Below are positions 8,558 to 61,816 of a stretch of 64,000 nt of DNA, piece by piece (positions within the stretch are counted from its first letter, which is position 1; every line of letters begins with the position of its first letter). Position numbers and translations under genes: made by a program. The notes under the pieces were generated by a model. It saw nothing but the letters and a program-made list of their open reading frames with translations. It ran no database searches and had not been told where the DNA came from. Source of the stretch: Nanobdellota archaeon (GTDB lineage: Archaea; Nanobdellota; Nanobdellia; Woesearchaeales; GW2011-AR4); contig JBBSWH010000004.1 in the NCBI GenBank assembly GCA_038046385.1, positions 9,291-73,290 of the forward strand, written 5' to 3'.

Positions 8558-9394
8558 ATGCCAGCAAAAATAATAGACGGCAACAAAATCGCAAAAAGCA
8601 TTCTAGATAATATAAAAAATAAAGTTAAGGTTATGAAGGAAAAGCCCGGCCTTGCTTTGGTTATGGTCGGCAGCAACCCTGCTTCTGAAGTCTATGTTAA
8701 TTTCAAGGAAAAAGACGCAAAAAAAACTGGTGTGTATTGCGAACGTTACAATCTTGAAGAGAAAACAACTCAAAATGATTTGCTCACGCTTCTTAACAAA
8801 CTAAACAACAATCCAAAAATACACGGATTGCTTGTCCAGCTGCCGTTGCCAAAACAAATTGACGAAAAAGTTGTAACAGATTCTATTCTTCCGCAAAAAG
8901 ATGTTGATGGTTTCACAACAGTAAACCTTGGAAGCTTGATGGCTGATAAAACAATCATAGCTCCTGCAACTGCAGTTGCAGTTATTCATCTTATTGAATC
9001 AACCGGGATAAAGATTGAAGGAAAGAACGCAGTTGTCATCGGAAGAAGCAACATTGTCGGAAAGCCTGTTGCATTGATGCTGATTGAAAAAAACGCAACA
9101 GTCACAGTATGCCATTCAAGGACAAAAAACATTTCCGATTACACAAAAAAAGCAGATATTCTTGTTGTTGCCGTTGGAAAGCCGAATCTGATAACAAAAG
9201 AAATGGTAAAAGAGGGCGCTGTTGTGATTGATGTCGGCATCAACAGAGTCAACGGAAAGCTTGTAGGCGACGTTGACTTTGAAAATGTAAAAAATGTTGC
9301 CGGCTTCATAACCCCGGTGCCAGGCGGCGTTGGCCCGATGACGCGCGCGATGCTGATGCAGAACACGCTGAAAGCGATGGAAATGAATAAATAA
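8558..9394 (+). CDS. folD: Bifunctional methylenetetrahydrofolate dehydrogenase/methenyl-THF cyclohydrolase
   Basis: 278 aa with VIGRSNIVGKPVALML and TPVPGGVGPMT, typical of FolD. Confidence 0.92.
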   Translation: MPAKIIDGNKIAKSILDNIKNKVKVMKEKPGLALVMVGSNPASEVYVNFKEKDAKKTGVYCERYNLEEKTTQNDLLTLLNKLNNNPKIHGLLVQLPLPKQIDEKVVTDSILPQKDVDGFTTVNLGSLMADKTIIAPATAVAVIHLIESTGIKIEGKNAVVIGRSNIVGKPVALMLIEKNATVTVCHSRTKNISDYTKKADILVVAVGKPNLITKEMVKEGAVVIDVGINRVNGKLVGDVDFENVKNVAGFITPVPGGVGPMTRAMLMQNTLKAMEMNK

Positions 9395-25762: not shown

Positions 25763-25982
25763 CCACTGGACAAAAAAGCACTGGACATCTCTGCCTAAGA
25801 TATATAAATCACTTCTGCCTCTAAAATTAAAAAAGAGGACACACAAAACTGCTAAATAATGATTTTCGGCTTTACCATAAATCAATTATGCAGTTTCGCT
25901 TAACATTCTCTTTTTAAATGAGATTTCCTGTATTAAACACAAGGAAATCTCACGTTAGATGAGCTTTCAAGAGGTAAGTAAA
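25763..25982 (+). repeat. Conserved promoter + structured 5' leader element, copy A
   Basis: CCACTGGACA then CACTGGACATCTCTGCCTAAGATATATAAA (TATA-like box about 25800..25808). P1 strands AAAAAGAGGACACACAAAACTGC (25830..25852) and GCAGTTTCGCTTAACATTCTCTTTTT (25890..25915). P3 hairpin GAGATTTCCT/AGGAAATCTC (25920..25951). GAGGT lies 7 nt before ATG 25983. Confidence 0.8.
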
Positions 25983-27065
25983 ATGGTGATAAGGTTAACT
26001 GACGAACAAAAAGAACAAATCAAAAACAAGTTTCAGGAGTATTTAAGTACAAATAAAACTACAAAAAATATTGCAAATGAATTAGGAGTAGAAAAATCTA
26101 CCGTTGCAAAATTTTATTCTAAATTGTTTGGAGAACAATATAAAAGAATGGCAAAATCAAAGTGTTACCAACATAATACCATATTAAGTGATAATCAAGT
26201 ATTAAAATTGTTTGAAAGGTACAAGAATGGAACTCCCGTAAAAGAATTAGAAAAAATTTCAGGGGTTGGATATGGTTCTTTATGCCCAAGAATGTTAAGG
26301 TTGATTGGAGAAGAATATCAAAAAGTATCTCTAAAAAGAAAGTATGAGAAAGCAGGAAATTTCTATAGAAAAGTGATAGATTTTGATGTAAGAATTGCGT
26401 TTGAAAAGTATAAATCAACTTCAGTATCAACGACCGCATTGGCTGATGAGTTAGGTTTAGCAGAAAGTACACTTATTTTCAGGTTTAAAAAATTGTTTGG
26501 TAACGACTAGGATATTCTTGCATTAAAAAGGAGAAATGAAAGAAAGGTTTCAAAAGAAGATTACATAAAATCTTTTGAAGAATACAAAAATTCCAATATC
26601 TCGTTAACTGACTTAGCAAATAAGCTAAATGTAAGAATTACTTCGCTTCGCACAAGATTTTTGAGGCTATTCGGAGAAGAATATATAGAAATAGCAAAAC
26701 AAAAATCTGATGGGTCTGCGCTAAACCGAAAAGGGGTTAACGCTGAAAATATAGCTTTGGAATATTTGAAAACAAAAGGCCATGTTATAAGTGATGTAAG
26801 ACATAAGGCAATTCTCAAAGGAACCTTAAAAAGGCCTGATTTTGTGATTGATAACACTTTTGTGGAAGTTAAGAATAACTACATAAATCTTAATAAGAAA
26901 AGAGTAAAGGGCTATTTGCAAATTATAGGAGATTACCTAGGGAAAGAAACAAAAGAAGGGAAAATATTGACAAAAGGCATTATAATTTCTTTAGGTGGCT
27001 TTTCTCAAGAAGTCAGGAAGAAAGCAGAAGAAGATGGAATAACTTTGATTGATTTGAAAAAATAG
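25983..27065 (+). pseudogene. 4x HTH-repeat + C-terminal PD-(D/E)xK nuclease protein interrupted by a single in-frame TAG (26508..26510). Either a pseudogene or a read-through gene.
   Basis: Track ORFs 25959..26510 and 26661..27065 share one frame, and 26511..26660 is open. Four repeats end KLFGEQY / RLIGEEY / KLFGND* / RLFGEEY. The fourth repeat begins before the TTG 'start' at 26661. The C-terminus has RPDFVIDNTFVEVK (PD...ExK). Confidence 0.7.
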
Positions 27066-27110
27066 AATTCTCACCAAACCTTTAAATAGCCCTATTTATT
27101 CCTCATTCTT

Positions 27111-27536
27111 ATGATAGTCGGCTTCGCTTTTACAAAAATAACAGCAGAAAAGAATGAGTCTGCAAAGGGAAAGATAGACATAAACAATAATGTATCCATA
27201 AAAGATGTTGTGGAAGACAATCTATCTCTTGGAAAGGAAAAGCAGACTGCCTTGAAATTCACTTTTGAATTTGTTTCAAAATATGAGCCTAACCTGGGAA
27301 AAATAGGAATTGAAGGGAATCTTCTTTACATGACCGATGCAAAGAAATCAAAAGAGATTCTTGCATCATGGAAAAAAGACAAAAAAGTCTCGCAGGATAT
27401 AATGGCAGGCCTTTTGAACCATGTTCTTACAAAATGCAACATACAGGCATTGATATTAAGCCAGGACATTAACCTGCCTCCGCCAATTCCTTTGCCAAAA
27501 GTGCACATGCAGCAGAAGCAGGAAAGTAAGAATTAA
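27111..27536 (+). CDS. Hypothetical protein (weak SecB-like pattern only)
   Basis: 141 aa. No firm motif. The C-terminal LNHVLTKCNIQALILSQDINLPPPIPLPKV is loosely reminiscent of SecB-type chaperones. Assignment is not supported beyond that. Confidence 0.4.
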   Translation: MIVGFAFTKITAEKNESAKGKIDINNNVSIKDVVEDNLSLGKEKQTALKFTFEFVSKYEPNLGKIGIEGNLLYMTDAKKSKEILASWKKDKKVSQDIMAGLLNHVLTKCNIQALILSQDINLPPPIPLPKVHMQQKQESKN

Positions 27537-35736: not shown

Positions 35737-36186
35737 TTAGTCACCACATCTTTCGATGTTGCCTTCATTTATCACGTTTTGGCATTTAGAACTTATTACT
35801 ATACCTCCATCGAAAGTAATCTTACCGCTTTTATACTCTTTTACTTGGGACGGTTCGTTGCCTTCTTTATAGATAGGCACTAAACAGTTTACCCACCCAT
35901 TGCTGTAATGCCCATATGCAATATATTCTTTACCGGGAAAACTGCCACTAAAGTCACCACCGCAAGACTTTGTCAATTTTATTATATTTTCATATTTATC
36001 TTGCAAACATAAATAACTATTTCCAGAAAATTCTATTGAAAGGCATGAAGTTCCCTTTATGTTTATAATTTTACCTTCGTATTTTTCAGGATAAAAAGAA
36101 ATATCCTGTATAGAGTCATAATTGAGGTTACAAGATGTAAGCATCAATACGAACATTAATGCCAAAAAAACAAGTTCAATCCTCAT
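35737..36186 (-). CDS. Hypothetical lipoprotein
   Basis: Track ORF extends to 36225. The internal start MRIELVFLALMFVLMLTSC (36186) gives a lipobox-like signal. Confidence 0.5.
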   Translation of the reverse strand: MRIELVFLALMFVLMLTSCNLNYDSIQDISFYPEKYEGKIINIKGTSCLSIEFSGNSYLCLQDKYENIIKLTKSCGGDFSGSFPGKEYIAYGHYSNGWVNCLVPIYKEGNEPSQVKEYKSGKITFDGGIVISSKCQNVINEGNIERCGD

Positions 36187-36228
36187 TTTATATTCTAAAG
36201 AGTAATCATTTAAAAATATTCTCATCTA

Positions 36229-36417
36229 CCACTGGACATCCTCACCTAAGGTTTATAAAGCAATTCTGCTTCTGAAAACTGAAAAAGAGAACACGCAAAA
36301 CTGCCAAATTATGATTTTTGCTTATAAGCCAAAAATCAATTATACAGTTTCGCTTAACATCCTCTTTTTCCTGAACTCCAAAGTTCCAGAAGTCAGAAAC
36401 TTTGGAGGTTGATTAAA
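36229..36417 (+). repeat. Conserved promoter + structured 5' leader element, copy B
   Basis: CCACTGGACATCCTCACCTAAGGTTTATAAAG (TATA box 36252..36259). P1 36282..36304 / 36344..36369. P2 hairpin GATTTTTGCTTATAAGCCAAAAATC (36313..36337). P3 CCAAAGTT/AACTTTGG (36378..36405) overlaps GGAGGT (36404..36409). ATG at 36418. Confidence 0.85.
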
Positions 36418-37578
36418 ATGAATGAAGATAAAATACAAATAACATTGGAAGATTTTCCAGATGATATCTATATTCTTTTAGAAGATAATTTTAGGGCAGA
36501 TTTCTTCAAAACTGCTTGGAAAATAAACAAAAGTTACAGGCACTTGGCTAAAAAGGTTGGAGTTTCCAATCCAGTCATGCTTTCTTGGAGAAGAGGAAGG
36601 ATTAATTTTACCAACCAAGACCAATTTTGCCCTGTTTGGGCTATAAAAGAGATAATAAACTACTCTAAGCATGATTCTGAATGGAAATTTTATTTGGATG
36701 AAGTACAAAAACACGTAAAATCAATAAGATGCAAGGCAGGCACTTACAAAATCTACAATGTTAAGCTGCCAATATATGATTCAATAGAGCTAAGGGAAAT
36801 TGTAACACACCTTATTTGTGATGGCTCGGCTTTAAATGAAAAGTATAGGACATCTAAATATGCTTCCACCAGTTTAAAAACTGTAAACGAAATAAAGAAA
36901 AAATTGTCAATATTTGGAGAAACTCCTAATTTAATTATTAGGAAAGAAACCTACACAAATCATTATTTGCCACTTTATGTATTAAATTTTTCCAAAGCTA
37001 TAACCAAAATTTTGACTGCTAAATTCAATATCGACTTTAGAGGGGATAAAGCAAGAATGCCTAAAGAGTTTTTTGTAGGGGAAAGAAAGTTATTAGTTGC
37101 AATTGTTAGGGCATTCTTAATTGATGAAGGATGTATAAGGGACAGAAATATTAACTTTTGTTCTGGGAGTGTGGAACTGCTTGAAGATTTAAAGCAAATT
37201 TGCCTTTTGCTAGACTATAAATGTCAAAATATAAGAAAAAGTGGTGGAACTTACTATCTAAATATTTCTCCAGACTCATTTACCAAAGTTTATGGGGATT
37301 TGGATTTGTTTGGTAAACTTCCTATTGCAGATAAACAGGAAAGATTGGATTTAGGAATAAAAATAATCAATAATTCACCAGATTTTCATAGTCTGGATAA
37401 TGATTTATTGTTAAATTTGAAAAGCCCAATTACAACTTTAGAGCTTTCTAAGAGATTACTAATAAACGGAAAAACAATAACTGAAAGATTAAACAAGATG
37501 CAAAAATTAGGGCTTGTTGAAAGAAATGTTAACAGAAACTTAGGAAAAGGCGGTTCTTTTAGCTGGAAGGTTCTTTAG
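36418..37578 (+). CDS. Free-standing double-motif LAGLIDADG homing-endonuclease-like protein with N-terminal HTH and C-terminal wHTH
   Basis: Track ORF 36409..37578 (TTG start); the ATG at 36418 is preferred. LAGLIDADG-type motifs are EIVTHLICDGSA and AIVRAFLIDEGCI. C-terminal TTLELSKRLLINGKTITERLNKMQKLGLVER. The 3' end overlaps the topA 3' end by 20 bp. Confidence 0.8.
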   Translation: MNEDKIQITLEDFPDDIYILLEDNFRADFFKTAWKINKSYRHLAKKVGVSNPVMLSWRRGRINFTNQDQFCPVWAIKEIINYSKHDSEWKFYLDEVQKHVKSIRCKAGTYKIYNVKLPIYDSIELREIVTHLICDGSALNEKYRTSKYASTSLKTVNEIKKKLSIFGETPNLIIRKETYTNHYLPLYVLNFSKAITKILTAKFNIDFRGDKARMPKEFFVGERKLLVAIVRAFLIDEGCIRDRNINFCSGSVELLEDLKQICLLLDYKCQNIRKSGGTYYLNISPDSFTKVYGDLDLFGKLPIADKQERLDLGIKIINNSPDFHSLDNDLLLNLKSPITTLELSKRLLINGKTITERLNKMQKLGLVERNVNRNLGKGGSFSWKVL

Positions 37579-39799
37579 CTTCATCTGAGGGTTTATTATT
37601 AGTTAATTTCTCAGTATAACGGCATTTAGGAAATTTATTACAGGCGTAAAACTTTCCGTAAATCGAGCTTCTTAATACAATATCGCCTTCATTGCATTTC
37701 GGGCATTTTCTCTTTATCTCGCCTTTTGCAATCGCTTTTGCTTCTTCTCCTGCTTCACCTGCTACGTGCTTTGTGGAACATTTCGGATTCAAACAGAATT
37801 CAAGCGGCTGCTTGCCTTTCTTTATCGCAAGCACCATTGGATACTTGCAAGTTTCGCATTCTTTCTTAGCAGGTTTTATCAAAGCGTTTTTTGGTATTGA
37901 AAAAATAGTCTTGCAGTCCGGATATTTGTTGCACGCCGCAAAAGCCCCAAACTTTCCGCGGCGCATTGTTATGTTTCCGAGCTTGCATATCGGGCATATC
38001 CCGAGAAAAGACATTTCATCCTGCGTCTCCTTGTTTGCCTTTGACAGTTCAGTTCCTATCTCCTTCTGGTGCTTCTTAAAATCAATTAATATTTTTGTGA
38101 TAGCCTCTTTAGCCTCTTCCAGAACCTGATCTTTTTTCTGCTTGCCTTCCCTTATGCCTTCCATTTCAAGCTCAAAGTGCCTAGTCAGTTCTTCATCTAT
38201 TATTTTAGGTGAATATTTCTCAAGGGTTTCTATTGTTGACACTCCAAGCTGTGTGGCTTCTATCGGGGTTCCTTTTACATATCCCCTATTGAATAGTGTA
38301 TCAACAATTTCAGAGCGCGTTGCCTTTGTCCCGAGATTTCTTCTTTCAAGCTCTTTTATTATTGAAGCAGGCGTGTATCTTTTTGCGTGCTGTGTTTCCT
38401 TCGACAATAATTCTATTTTCCCAATATTCACTTTTTGCCCCTGCCTTAAATCTGGAAGCTCTATTTCTTCCAGTTTTACATAAGGCTCATAGAATTTGTG
38501 CCACCCTTTTTCTATTGTTCTTGTGCCTCTTGTTATGAAAATTTCATTGTTGCAGTTTAAGTCTACAGTCATTGTCTCTCTTACTGCATTCTCTGCAAAC
38601 GTTGCCATGAACCTCTTTACAATAATATCATAGATTTTTGCTTCCTTTGCCTCAAGCTCGTTTGGAGCAATTCCAGTCGGATAAAGCGCAGGGTGCGCAG
38701 GGTCTGTCTTTTTGCCGTTGTTTGGCTTGAGGGATTTTTTTGCTGTAAGCAGCTTGACAGATGCAGCATATTTTGCCTGCTTTCCTAAGCCGTCAAATAT
38801 CTTCTTATAGCCTATTGACTCCGGCAGCTGCTGGCTTGATGTTCTTGGATAAGAAATGAAACTTGAAGTGTAAAGCTCCTGCGCAATAGAAAGTGTTTCT
38901 TTTGGAGATATTCCGAAGCATCTGTAAGCCTCAATCTGCAATGATGTTAAATCGAACGGAAACGGAGGCATCTGGTCAAATTTTCTTCTTTCAACCTCGT
39001 CAGCATTTGCTTCTTTCTGGCTTTTTGTTTTGGCAATTGATTTCTCAGCTTCCTTTTTGTCCCAGAATTTGTCCTGCACATGCCAAGCTTCCATCTTCTG
39101 CTGCTTAAAATTTGCGTCCATCCTTATCTGCCAAAACGGCTTTGGAACAAATGCCTTGATTTCCTTTTCCCTGTCTACAATTATCTTCAGCGAGGGTCCT
39201 TGAACCCTGCCGGTTGACATTATCTTGAATGATCCTGATGATTTTATTGATGCTGTAAGCGCCCTTGAATAGTTAATTCCATTATACCAGTCCAGAAAAT
39301 GGCGCGTTTCTCCGGCCTCTGCCTGACCCCAGTCAAGGTGCTTGCTTTTTTTTGAATATGCTTCCCTTAGCTCATCTTTTGTCAATGTTGAGAACTTCAT
39401 CCTGTATGCATCTTTCTTGCCGCAAGCGTACCTTATGACATTTAATCCGATTACTTCCCCTTCCTGGTCATAATCTGTTGCAACTGTGTATTCGTTTGCG
39501 CCTTTTGCGAGCTTCTTTATTGTATTAAGATATTTTTTTGTAAACTCTGATCCCCTGACATTTTCAGAAACCGGCTTCCATTCTATGTCAAACATAGGAT
39601 ATGTCCATCCTTTCTTTTGCCTTTCACACAGCCCATAAAGATGGCCTACAGCGCACGTAACAACAATATCCTTCTTGCCATGGGTAATCTTATAGTAAGC
39701 AACGCCCTGATTAACCTCTTTTATCGCCTTTCCATCAGTAAGTGATTCTGCTATTTTCTGAGCAGCAGCCGGCTTTTCTGTGATGATTAACTCATACAT
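37559..39799 (-). CDS. topA: DNA topoisomerase I (type IA) with C-terminal zinc ribbons
   Basis: 746 aa. Toprim start YELIITEKP, active-site region FISYPRTSSQQLP, and C-terminal CPICK/CETCK/CPKCN zinc-ribbon repeats. Confidence 0.92.
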   Translation of the reverse strand: MYELIITEKPAAAQKIAESLTDGKAIKEVNQGVAYYKITHGKKDIVVTCAVGHLYGLCERQKKGWTYPMFDIEWKPVSENVRGSEFTKKYLNTIKKLAKGANEYTVATDYDQEGEVIGLNVIRYACGKKDAYRMKFSTLTKDELREAYSKKSKHLDWGQAEAGETRHFLDWYNGINYSRALTASIKSSGSFKIMSTGRVQGPSLKIIVDREKEIKAFVPKPFWQIRMDANFKQQKMEAWHVQDKFWDKKEAEKSIAKTKSQKEANADEVERRKFDQMPPFPFDLTSLQIEAYRCFGISPKETLSIAQELYTSSFISYPRTSSQQLPESIGYKKIFDGLGKQAKYAASVKLLTAKKSLKPNNGKKTDPAHPALYPTGIAPNELEAKEAKIYDIIVKRFMATFAENAVRETMTVDLNCNNEIFITRGTRTIEKGWHKFYEPYVKLEEIELPDLRQGQKVNIGKIELLSKETQHAKRYTPASIIKELERRNLGTKATRSEIVDTLFNRGYVKGTPIEATQLGVSTIETLEKYSPKIIDEELTRHFELEMEGIREGKQKKDQVLEEAKEAITKILIDFKKHQKEIGTELSKANKETQDEMSFLGICPICKLGNITMRRGKFGAFAACNKYPDCKTIFSIPKNALIKPAKKECETCKYPMVLAIKKGKQPLEFCLNPKCSTKHVAGEAGEEAKAIAKGEIKRKCPKCNEGDIVLRSSIYGKFYACNKFPKCRYTEKLTNNKPSDEAKEPSS

Positions 39800-41723: not shown

Positions 41724-41826
41724 CGCCCCTCCGGGGAATTGAACCCCGATCTTAAGCTGTTTTCAAGCGAAATTGCTGGATTTTCGCTGCCGCAAGCTCA
41801 TGTGCTATCCGTTATACCAGAGGGAC
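41724..41826 (-). tRNA. tRNA-Arg(GCG) with a 31-nt intron at the canonical 37/38 position
   Basis: Minus strand reads GTCCCTCTGGTATAACGGATAGCACATGAGCTTGCGG[CAGCGAAAATCCAGCAATTTCGCTTGAAAAC]AGCTTAAGATCGGGGTTCAATTCCCCGGAGGGGCG. Anticodon arm is TGAGC-TTGCGGA-GCTTA. The intron contains the AGCGAAA/TTTCGCT helix. Confidence 0.8.
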
Positions 41827-47484: not shown

Positions 47485-47704
47485 TATTTACCCCTCCGCA
47501 TATTTTTCATTTAAGTTAAATCTGAAAGTGTTGTTATTTTAGAATACTAACTTGTATTTAAACTTTGTGGTAGTTAAAATAGATTTTGGTGATTTTTGTC
47601 GAATGGAGATTCTTTTTTCAAAGAATTATTTAATAGTGATTATAGGAGTTATAAGATAATGGATTCTAAAAAGCCGGAGCACTATATATAGTATGTGATT
47701 TTGA

Positions 47705-47892
47705 CCACTGGACATCTCCGCCTAAGATATATAAAGGAGATTTACTTATAAAACTGAAAAAGAGAACACGCAAAACTGCTAAATTAAGTCTTTTGGTCTT
47801 TGACGCAAAAGCCTATTACGCAGTTTCGCTTCAAATTCTCTTTTTACTTAAATCCAAAGTTCCAAGAGTCAGAAACTTTGGAGGTGTCTAAT
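47705..47892 (+). repeat. Conserved promoter + structured 5' leader element, copy C
   Basis: CCACTGGACATCTCCGCCTAAGATATATAAAGG (TATA-like 47726..47734). P1 47757..47779 / 47820..47845. P2 CTTTTGGTCTTTGACGCAAAAG (47790..47811). P3 CCAAAGTT/AACTTTGG (47854..47881) overlaps GGAGGT (47880..47885). ATG at 47893. Confidence 0.85.
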
Positions 47893-48681
47893 ATGAAAGC
47901 GTTAAGTCAGGAGGAAATTGAGCAGATTTGTGGATTGTATAAAGAACATGGTAGTGTTAGGGCTGTAATAAAAAGAATGCCTGTGAGTAATGGGTCAGCA
48001 CACAAATATCTAACTTTAAAACACTTAATCAGAAAACAAAATATCGTCAGGGAATTAAAAACCCATGATGAGAGATTAATTGGGGTTTATGTTGGTCTTT
48101 GGATGGGTGATGGAACTCAGTACAAAGATGGGCATAGCTACACTATCAAAATATGCACAAATAGCGATGATGTAAACCTAAATAAATTTGTCAAAGATCT
48201 CATAATCCTAGTTTTTAATAAGAATACTTCATTGTTTAAGGAAAGGCACAGGAAAAGCGCTTATATAAAATTCAGCTCTAGGTTTATTTTTGAATTCATT
48301 CATGATTATGTTGTTTATGATGAAAAGAAGAAAACATATACTGTAGGGCTAAGGAAAAGGGCTAATGCATATCCAAAAGAATTTCGTGAAGGATGCTTGC
48401 TGGGTTTAGCATTAAGTGATGGATATCTTAAAAATAATTTTGTTTTTACTGTTTCATCTGCCAGATTGGCTAGAAATATGTATGATTTATTGGCCGGATT
48501 TAGGTACAATCCCTGTTCAAGCTTAGATAGGAGAGAAAAATACCACAACAACATCATGTATTCAATAAAGCTTACTAAGCCAGATAGCATGGCTTTGAAT
48601 GTCTTTTTAGACAAAGTCATTAGAAGTTTAGGATATACTTATTCTTTTAAGGAATTGAAATATGGGCCCGGTGAGATTTGA
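47893..48681 (+). CDS. Free-standing double-motif LAGLIDADG homing-endonuclease-like protein (second, non-orthologous copy)
   Basis: Track ORF 47800..48681 (TTG start) reads through the conserved leader. SD + ATG at 47893 (MKALSQEEIEQI...) is preferred. Motifs are IGVYVGLWMGDGTQ and CLLGLALSDGYL, with an N-terminal HTH-like segment. The last 19 bp overlap the 3' end of tRNA-Ile. Confidence 0.8.
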   Translation: MKALSQEEIEQICGLYKEHGSVRAVIKRMPVSNGSAHKYLTLKHLIRKQNIVRELKTHDERLIGVYVGLWMGDGTQYKDGHSYTIKICTNSDDVNLNKFVKDLIILVFNKNTSLFKERHRKSAYIKFSSRFIFEFIHDYVVYDEKKKTYTVGLRKRANAYPKEFREGCLLGLALSDGYLKNNFVFTVSSARLARNMYDLLAGFRYNPCSSLDRREKYHNNIMYSIKLTKPDSMALNVFLDKVIRSLGYTYSFKELKYGPGEI

Positions 48682-48751
48682 ACTCATGGCCTCACGATAT
48701 CAGACTGAATGATATCAGTCGTGCGCTCTAACCAAGCTGAGCTACGGGCCC
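48663..48751 (-). tRNA. tRNA-Ile(GAU) with a 14-nt intron at or near the canonical position
   Basis: Minus strand reads GGGCCCGTAGCTCAGCTTGGTTAGAGCGCACGACTGATA[TCATTCAGTCTGAT]ATCGTGAGGCCATGAGTTCAAATCTCACCGGGCCCA. Confidence 0.85.
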
Positions 48752-48802
48752 GTAGTTTTGAAGAAATTATGCCGATTTATAAAGCTTGTTGAGAATAAAA
48801 AA

Positions 48803-48891
48803 CGCCCCCGGTCAGACTCGAACTGACGACCTTATCGTCTCTCTGAATAAATCATAACAGCGATACGCTCTACCTGCTGAGCTACAGGGGC
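48803..48891 (-). tRNA. tRNA-Asn(GUU) with a 16-nt intron at the canonical position
   Basis: Minus strand reads GCCCCTGTAGCTCAGCAGGTAGAGCGTATCGCTGTTA[TGATTTATTCAGAGAG]ACGATAAGGTCGTCAGTTCGAGTCTGACCGGGGGCG. Confidence 0.85.
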
Positions 48892-48931
48892 ATAATTAAA
48901 AGGATAAAAATTCTATTTAAAAAGCTTTAGC

Positions 48932-61650: not shown

Positions 61651-61699
61651 ACGTTATCCCACCGTAACCTTTTTAAAGCGTCATCGTATCCCAATACAT

Positions 61700-61809
<110 letters not shown>

Positions 61810-61816
61810 ACCTTTT

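Follow-up and report, generated by a model that had tools for sequence, protein, structure and literature searches.

A conserved three-helix RNA structure is probably the 5' leader of free-standing homing-endonuclease cassettes in Woesearchaeota-type (DPANN) archaea

The 64-kb stretch of DNA that was analysed as a whole, called the window here, has a G+C content of 38%, intron-containing tRNA genes, a lone 5S rRNA gene and a gene for an ATP-dependent DNA ligase; these features mark it as archaeal. The 5S rRNA gene lies at 61698-61812 (+), and 16S and 23S rRNA genes are absent from the 64-kb window. Three of the tRNA genes, 48663-48751 (-), 48802-48892 (-) and 41724-41826 (-), are 89-103 nt long, presumably with introns; ARAGORN left the anticodon unnamed in two of them and missed the third. 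The window holds three cassettes, A, B and C, each consisting of a promoter, a structured leader and a downstream gene or genes. Their features, in window coordinates, are as follows.

47706-47714 (+): CACTGGACA box of copy C, at the upstream border of its cassette
47720-47735 (+): BRE-like GCCTAAGA and TATA box TATATAAA (47728-47735) of copy C
47757-47845 (+): P1-P2 domain of copy C, delimited by fold and covariation, its 3' strand closing with T5 (47841-47845)
47757-47766 with 47836-47845 (+): outer block of P1 in copy C, AAAAAGAGAA paired with TTCTCTTTTT, 10 bp
47767-47769 (+): CAC bulge in P1 of copy C
47770-47771 with 47828-47829 (+): 2-bp GC/GC helix of copy C
47773-47779 with 47820-47826 (+): inner block of P1 in copy C, AAACTGC paired with GCAGTTT
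47784-47819 (+): P2 of copy C, with CTTTTGGTC-TTT-GAC(G)CAAAAG at 47790-47811
47853-47861 and 47874-47882 (+): P3 of copy C, an anti-SD:SD hairpin of (T)CCAAAGTT, 12 nt and AACTTTGG(A)
47880-47885 (+): Shine-Dalgarno (SD) sequence GGAGGT of copy C, overlapped by P3
47893 (+): ATG of gene C
47893-48681 (+): gene C, 262 aa, N-terminal HTH and two LAGLIDADG motifs, homing-endonuclease-like
36230-36417 (+): copy B, with box 36230-36238, TATA 36252-36259, P1-P2 36282-36369, P3 36377-36407 and SD 36404-36409; covariance-model score 141.8 bits
36418-37578 (+): gene B, 386 aa, LAGLIDADG_3-like with a C-terminal winged HTH
25764-25982 (+): copy A, with two boxes (25764-25772, 25779-25787), TATA 25801-25808, P1-P2 25830-25915, a variant P3 GAGATTTCCT-n12-AGGAAATCTC at 25920-25951 and SD-like AGAGGT at 25970-25975; 112.1 bits
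25983-27065 (+): gene(s) A, with HTH repeats at 25983-26510, TAG at 26508-26510, and HTH plus a Mrr_cat-like PD-(D/E)XK domain at 26511-27065

The region 47704-47897, which carries copy C, has two relatives in the window, at 36228-36422 (copy B) and 25779-25916 (copy A). The three leaders are 67-81% identical to each other, and BLASTP detects no similarity among the three downstream proteins. The leaders share a common shape: a long P1 helix broken by an asymmetric internal loop, an apical P2 and a separate P3 hairpin. Against dinucleotide shuffles, the folds of A, B and C have z-scores of -3.6 to -6.9, and 0 of 200 shuffles equalled them. A first-pass annotation, made from the window alone, had proposed a three-helix RNA fold for these leaders, and all of its helices were found again in copies A, B and C. 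Both blocks of P1 are present in copy C, the outer one being 10 bp long where 8 had been given. Copies A and B look as that annotation described them, including the different P3 stem of A.

The downstream genes had been taken for nuclease genes, and their domain content points the same way. Among the 49 downstream proteins compared, which come from the wider family described below, 30 match LAGLIDADG_3, three match HNH_repeat (the 'homing endonuclease associated repeat') and one matches Mrr_cat; the others show HTH domains only. HTH domains are borne by many cassette proteins, and the largest BLAST cluster of downstream proteins holds 103 of 158. Gene C is 26% identical to a protein with LAGLIDADG_3 and HTH_38 domains, with both LAGLIDADG motifs aligned, and has 62 homologues in the database, many with PF14528. 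The two ORFs of gene A share a frame and are split by the TAG at 26508-26510 alone. Read-through would give a protein of ~360 aa with four HTH-like repeats and the Mrr_cat-like nuclease domain; the split could represent a pseudogene, a split gene or stop-codon read-through. No further endonuclease-like ORF was found in the window. In the copies inspected, the start codon follows P3 and the SD sequence. An upstream small ORF within the leader was considered and discarded, an AUG being present in one P2 type only.

The cassettes abut conserved host genes, namely the DNA ligase gene (A), topA (B) and a tRNA gene (C), and comparison with other loci identifies them as insertions. In locus L163, an orthologue of the DNA ligase gene (76% identity) is followed directly by an orthologue of the window gene 27111-27536. 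Cassette A, ~1.3 kb and roughly 25763-27073, is missing there; the inserted DNA begins with the first box, no more than 12 nt from the stop codon of the ligase gene, and stops just short of the promoter of the next gene. Orthologues of gene B adjoin topA in L086, L123, L129 and L077, and in L076 cassette B is missing between the same flanking genes. The 3' end of gene B overlaps the 3' end of topA (37559-37578), and the last 19 nt of gene C overlap the convergent tRNA gene 48663-48751 (-). About half of the leader copies have an ORF on the same strand whose end is no more than 200 nt from P1, in many cases directly at the box. This is the behaviour of free-standing homing-endonuclease genes. 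An intron carrying an endonuclease, either group I or bulge-helix-bulge (BHB), was rejected: there is no Rfam intron match, the element is intergenic and it has its own promoter. Moreover, the 3-4-3 geometry of a BHB motif is not seen in the bulges, and a paper on archaeal group I introns concerns rRNA introns only.

Two neighbouring observations may be recorded here. A helicase gene in L173 (1-884, -), beside a leaderless cassette, contains an intein with its own LAGLIDADG_3 domain, so intein-borne and free-standing endonucleases occur side by side in these genomes. In L169, the segment 9660-9890, just upstream of a leaderless endonuclease cassette, is G+C-rich and structured-looking, and no Rfam family reaches the gathering score there.

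The leader belongs to a large family. A P1-based pattern run on GTDB species genomes returned 48 loci with 52 copies (the P1-ascertained set), nearly all from MAGs labelled Woesearchaeota or Nanoarchaeia. The few loci labelled Methanosarcinales, Aminicenantes or Micrarchaeota may be binning errors. A second search used the CACTGGACA box and P3 only, leaving P1 and P2 free, and gave 119 metagenome stretches (the P1-independent set). A covariance model trained on the copies of the first search had 52, 78 and 38 sense-strand matches in three locus groups, and all 168 matches lie inside a cassette, with ~0.98 Mb of loci plus the window scanned. It found no further diverged copies in the loci or the window, the leftover matches being reverse-strand echoes. 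Together, the 52 GTDB copies and 116 metagenome copies make 148 distinct sequences. In a search of the window with Rfam 15, only 5S rRNA and tRNAs reach the gathering score, and over 47650-47950 the best hit is a miRNA model with an E-value of 1.1. Known ribozymes and riboswitches were rejected on this ground, no Rfam match having an E-value below 1. A virus origin was rejected as well, as the viral contigs of IMG/VR contain no copy of the leader. No description of the leader motif was found in the literature.

Pairing in the enlarged sets is highly consistent. Standard pairs fill 92.3% of the cells in the P1-ascertained set and 91.6% in the P1-independent set; shifting the 3' partners by 1-3 columns lowers these values to 36-61% and 34-63%, respectively. 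Changes on both sides occur at 20 pairs in the first set and 19 in the second (15-20 across enlarged alignments), and the observed covariation was matched by 0 of 500 shuffles in each of the two sets and thus exceeds chance. In the P1-ascertained set, double changes are found in 11 of the 12 P3 pairs and in 5 P2 pairs. In the P1-independent set, they are found in 6 of the 10 outer P1 pairs, and one inner P1 pair occurs as G-C (57), C-G (9) and U-A (1). The compensatory changes that had been claimed from the window copies are therefore seen in P3 and P2 in the one set, and in P1 and P2 in the other. From the covariation and the pairing in the enlarged sets it follows that the three-helix fold is real and conserved.

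The copies also vary in instructive ways. P2 is replaced wholesale between types, and in some copies (e.g., L028, L036, L045) an extra hairpin is inserted into it. The distant variants L132, L160 and L162 keep the architecture with different stem sequences. A different P3 stem is found in copy A, L008, L028 and L032; in L008 and L032, CUCC-like bases still pair with the SD sequence. Over the 148 copies, P1-P2 is 82-107 nt long, the linker from P1 to P3 is mostly 6-7 nt, and a T run of at least 5 stands at the 3' end of P1 in 138. The unpaired bases CAC, UUAACR and YAAAU of P1-P2 are conserved, and P2 is variable. Concerted evolution within a genome was considered and rejected: orthologous leaders are ~80% identical, and paralogous or unrelated ones up to 88%. 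As orthologous leaders are no closer to each other than paralogous or unrelated ones, the tree is star-like. Two further motif candidates were dismissed. GCTTAAC fits the RYYYAAC core of an integron attC-like site, has no inverse core partner and is expected as a chance match. By inspection, the P1 internal loop has no tandem G-A pairs on either strand that would make it a K-turn.

The promoter is as uniform as the fold. In the window, the exact CACTGGACA 9-mer occurs solely at the three cassettes (25764, 25779, 36230, 47706), and CACTGGACA(T) is found upstream of 50 of the 52 P1-ascertained copies, doubled in some. A TATA box, TATATAAA or TATTTAAA, lies at a fixed distance of 29-30 nt before the first base of P1 in ~150 copies, and in the aligned copies a BRE-like purine-rich stretch precedes it. 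Many host genes of the window have a TATA-like motif 28-32 nt before the ATG and no SD sequence, and a minority have a GGAGG-type sequence. Because of this arrangement the former genes appear to be leaderless; examples of such starts are at 8558, 12156, 13325, 27111, 37559-39799 (-), 40997 and 49434. By the same geometry, the cassette transcript should begin at the first base of P1, a predicted start based on promoter spacing. What the cassettes have in common is the promoter with its box; the 135-nt leader is added exactly at this predicted transcription start. The box may be bound by a regulator of its own, for which the HTH domain found in many of the cassette proteins is a candidate.

The combination of the CACTGGACA box, RCGYGTGAG or GCCTAAG, and TATA marks endonuclease promoters even where there is no structured leader. 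Such leaderless box sites are at L168 9935-10003, L169 9945-10003, L170 9875-10003 and, in L171-L174, ~940-1003; L170 has up to four copies or near-copies of the box.

P3 is the part of the leader that touches the ribosome-binding site. In the predicted hairpin, CUCC pairs with the GGAG of the SD sequence, and the mean minimum free energy (MFE) of P3 over the 148 copies is -11.1 kcal/mol. GGAG is found in 140 of the 148 copies and is paired in the whole-leader MFE structure in 136 of those 140. The proposal of the first-pass annotation that the fold occludes the ribosome-binding site thus holds for most copies. It does not extend to copy A, whose P3 leaves the SD-like AGAGGT (25970-25975) uncovered, 18 nt past the hairpin. 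The annotation had further suggested that translation could be gated by the structure, and this is not borne out by the predictions. In one representative copy, P3 forms identically after removal of the 5' half or of the entire 5' strand of P1, GGAG has a predicted probability of ~0 of being unpaired whether the 5' half is present or not, and no alternative pairing was found that frees GGAG or links P1-P2 to P3. In the same representative copy, P3 is predicted to be folded from 10 to 55 °C, with ~-17 to -21 kcal/mol at 10-20 °C, and an RNA thermometer was rejected on this prediction. Covarying stems and invariant unpaired bases, as expected of a riboswitch, are present, and the mutually exclusive pairing of a sensor and a platform was absent from the one representative copy. 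Since P3 folds independently of P1-P2 and keeps GGAG paired from 10 to 55 °C, it looks, in these folding models, like a constant translational brake and not like a demonstrated switch.

The leader is not an obligatory part of the cassette. Seven homologues of gene C were retrieved via the protein and not the RNA. Each of them shows an exact or near match to the box, followed by a BRE-like stretch and TATA, and their ATG follows 22-24 nt after the TATA; the covariance model finds no leader in any of the seven. In such leaderless orthologues the TATA is as far from the ATG as it is from P1 in the leader-bearing copies. Two of these loci, L174 (60% identity to gene C) and L171 (52%), are syntenic with cassette C: both have the divergent gene with a PKD domain and an intergenic region that is homologous. 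When these loci are aligned, the leader is present in window copy C and in L113, and L174 and L171 pass from the promoter directly into the ATG. By protein identity, the leaderless L174 is closer to gene C (60%) than is the leader-bearing L113 (54%). It follows that, inside one endonuclease lineage and at one locus, the leader was gained or lost more than once. The existence of orthologous cassettes with the same promoter and no leader makes the leader an optional module that was gained or lost.

Taken together, the element probably serves the free-standing homing-endonuclease cassettes of Woesearchaeota-type (DPANN) archaea as a 5' leader, read on the sense strand. What the computations establish is its fold and covariation, the pairing of the SD sequence, the promoter geometry, the gene association, the insertion polymorphism of the cassettes and the presence or absence of the leader; where transcription starts, how translation is affected and what P1-P2 may do are inferred. 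In the proposed mechanism, the cassette-specific promoter (CACTGGACA box, BRE-like stretch and TATA) would direct transcription from the first base of P1. The RNA would carry the P1-P2 domain at its very 5' end, with five U closing the 3' strand, followed by the separate P3. By pairing CUCC with the GGAG of the SD sequence, P3 would keep translation of a potentially toxic nuclease at a constantly low level. The invariant unpaired bases suggest that P1-P2 is more than a stabilising stem. It could be a second layer of control, acting by partial oligo-U termination, by protection of the 5' end or as a platform for a factor. The leader is removable: related, even orthologous, cassettes share this promoter and have their ATG where transcription is predicted to begin, which would give a leaderless mRNA. 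A bolder version, which we consider unlikely, is a portable RNA module that moves between nuclease cassettes and whose P1-P2 is a new class of functional RNA, either a sensor or a small or antisense RNA controlling all homing endonucleases together. If this were true, the near-identical P1-P2 in dozens of cassettes per genome would offer genome-wide copy-number control by the cell or by the elements.

A possible alternative, less probable than the leader reading and compatible with it, is that P1-P2 is mainly a discrete hairpin RNA of ~90 nt or an attenuator, so that the endonuclease mRNA would be made via read-through only; P3 would still brake translation. Oligo-T tracts are the intrinsic termination signal in archaea, and the T run that closes the 3' strand in 138 of the 148 copies fits such a role. 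The two ends of the predicted RNA are base-paired to one another, the five basal A-U pairs never flip to U-A though pairing would survive, and the high conservation of unpaired P1-P2 bases suits an RNA with a function of its own. However, T5 is confounded with its pairing role opposite the A5 at the predicted transcription start, and in an AT-rich organism it is only a candidate terminator. In the copies inspected, the distance to the ORF with its SD sequence and P3 is fixed, and ~0.98 Mb scanned with the covariance model contained no copy on its own. Less likely still is an action of the element as DNA, whether as a miniature inverted-repeat element or recombination site between promoter and ATG, or as a palindromic operator for a dimeric protein. 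The outer block of P1 resembles terminal inverted repeats, orthologous cassettes either have the complete leader or lack it, with clean boundaries, and many cassette proteins have HTH domains, but we hold this explanation to be very improbable. There is no copy away from a cassette in ~0.98 Mb and no target-site duplication at the junctions of the aligned cassettes with and without leader. Whole-stem replacements keep the pairing (P2 variants; P3 in A, L008 and L032; inner P1 in L132), which fits RNA pairing and not a fixed protein-binding site. Wobble-type pairs are tolerated, and the anti-SD:SD logic of P3 is meaningful in RNA only.

The structure could also be selected on the opposite strand, as an antisense RNA that pairs with the identical leaders of all cassettes (multicopy inhibition) or as a bidirectional terminator or insulator at the cassette edge; this we regard as improbable, in spite of a clear folding asymmetry. 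The reverse complement of P1-P2 folds better by 9 kcal/mol on average (-33.2 vs. -24.4 kcal/mol) and is the better of the two strands in all but one of 118 copies (117); RNAalifold gives consensus values of ~-33 for antisense vs. -12 to -17 for sense. The better fold arises because the loop oppositions of the sense strand (CAC vs. ACR, A vs. C) all turn into G-U. Several polymorphic pairs have C-A and not U-G intermediates, a pattern that would be expected from selection on the other strand; pair 15/103, for example, is seen as C-G, C-A and U-A and never as U-G. The ratio of G-U to A-C is 0:22 in the middle of P1, 19:39 in P2 and 7:13 in the inner P1. After clustering, the excess of A-C over G-U is ~1.5-2 fold and comes mostly from a handful of pairs, 18/107 in P1, 44/84 in P2 and 144/161 close to the loop of P3; a further contributor, the 15/103 opposition, is not part of the structure that was counted. 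Both strands start with GAAAAAGAG and finish with CTCTTTTTC, and strict conservation of primary sequence over unrelated genes would suit a trans-acting antisense RNA. On the other hand, G+U-rich complements of A+C-rich strands fold better regardless of function. The ratio is balanced in the outer P1 (19:23) and runs in the opposite direction in the P3 core (26:10), which favours the sense strand, and the hairpin inserted into P2 (L028, L036, L045) passes through sense G-U. The conserved BRE/TATA is oriented in the sense direction, and a search downstream of the ATG, where the sequence is only A-rich, revealed no conserved antisense promoter. The T-rich loop of P3, a candidate TATA for the antisense direction, is missing in B, C, L010 and L048.

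Several known systems resemble parts of the leader reading. In IS10, a multicopy selfish element, the 5' region of the transposase mRNA (RNA-IN) is complementary to a stable stem-loop RNA (RNA-OUT), and sequence identity between copies allows control of the transposase in trans. Here, by contrast, no antisense promoter was found, and the antisense reading comes from the folding asymmetry only. HEARO, the omega-RNA of IscB, is a conserved structured RNA directly 5' of a nuclease gene in a mobile unit. Unlike omega-RNA, the archaeal leader precedes nucleases of unrelated folds (LAGLIDADG, PD-(D/E)XK) that recognise DNA by protein, it includes the gene's own SD sequence, and orthologous genes manage without it. 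A guide-RNA role is thus unlikely.

The closest parallels are in phages. Homing-endonuclease genes of T-even phages (I-TevI, I-TevII, I-TevIII, segB, and mobE of Aeh1) have hairpins that sequester the ribosome-binding site (PMC2988022). As in the archaeal leader, a stable hairpin lies just 5' of the ORF with the SD sequence in its 3' arm, and it precedes endonucleases of different families; its presumed purpose is a low level of the DNA cutter (PMC2988022). The phages have a late promoter, within the hairpin or behind it, from which transcripts with a free ribosome-binding site arise (PMC2988022), whereas the sole conserved promoter of the archaeal cassettes is upstream of everything and each predicted transcript bears the hairpin. 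In most archaeal copies the A/T-rich loop of P3 could serve as a TATA ~23 nt from the ATG for a second promoter of this type; B, C, L010 and L048 lack it. The archaeal leader further differs in its host, in the additional ~90 nt of P1-P2 and in that one near-identical leader is common to more than 100 genes. Conserved 5'-UTR hairpins also precede free-standing endonuclease genes at 'fractured gene' loci of marine metagenomes, where complementary motifs form a hairpin upstream of ORFs in many host-gene contexts (PMC2677866). Those loci are phage-like, with T4-type late promoter elements and GIY-YIG or Vsr-like enzymes, and, unlike the archaeal leader, have neither a second structured domain nor an archaeal promoter (PMC2677866).

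Hiding the ribosome-binding site of a homing endonuclease is therefore already known from T4-like phages; new, it seems, are the host group, the presence of a P1-P2 domain and the modular nature of the leader. What appears to be undescribed is an archaeal counterpart, one near-identical promoter-plus-leader unit used by more than 100 endonuclease genes of unrelated folds in dozens of DPANN genomes, and a conserved extra RNA domain. P1-P2 is a candidate new RNA family. Three cassettes in this 64-kb window suggest that these small genomes carry free-standing homing endonucleases at about the density of phage T4; the host setting is that of tiny groundwater archaea. Orthologous cassettes with and without the leader form a natural control, and its effect on expression and on persistence of the element is directly testable.

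Cassette B has a companion on its upstream side. A 162-aa ORF without a Pfam match, window 35737-36225 (-), starts 4 nt from the box of cassette B. It accompanies the cassette in L086 and L129 and is missing along with it in L076. The TATA of cassette B (36252-36259) is near-palindromic, TTTATAAA, and ends 26 nt from the ATG of this ORF; judging from this spacing, a single TATA may serve both directions.
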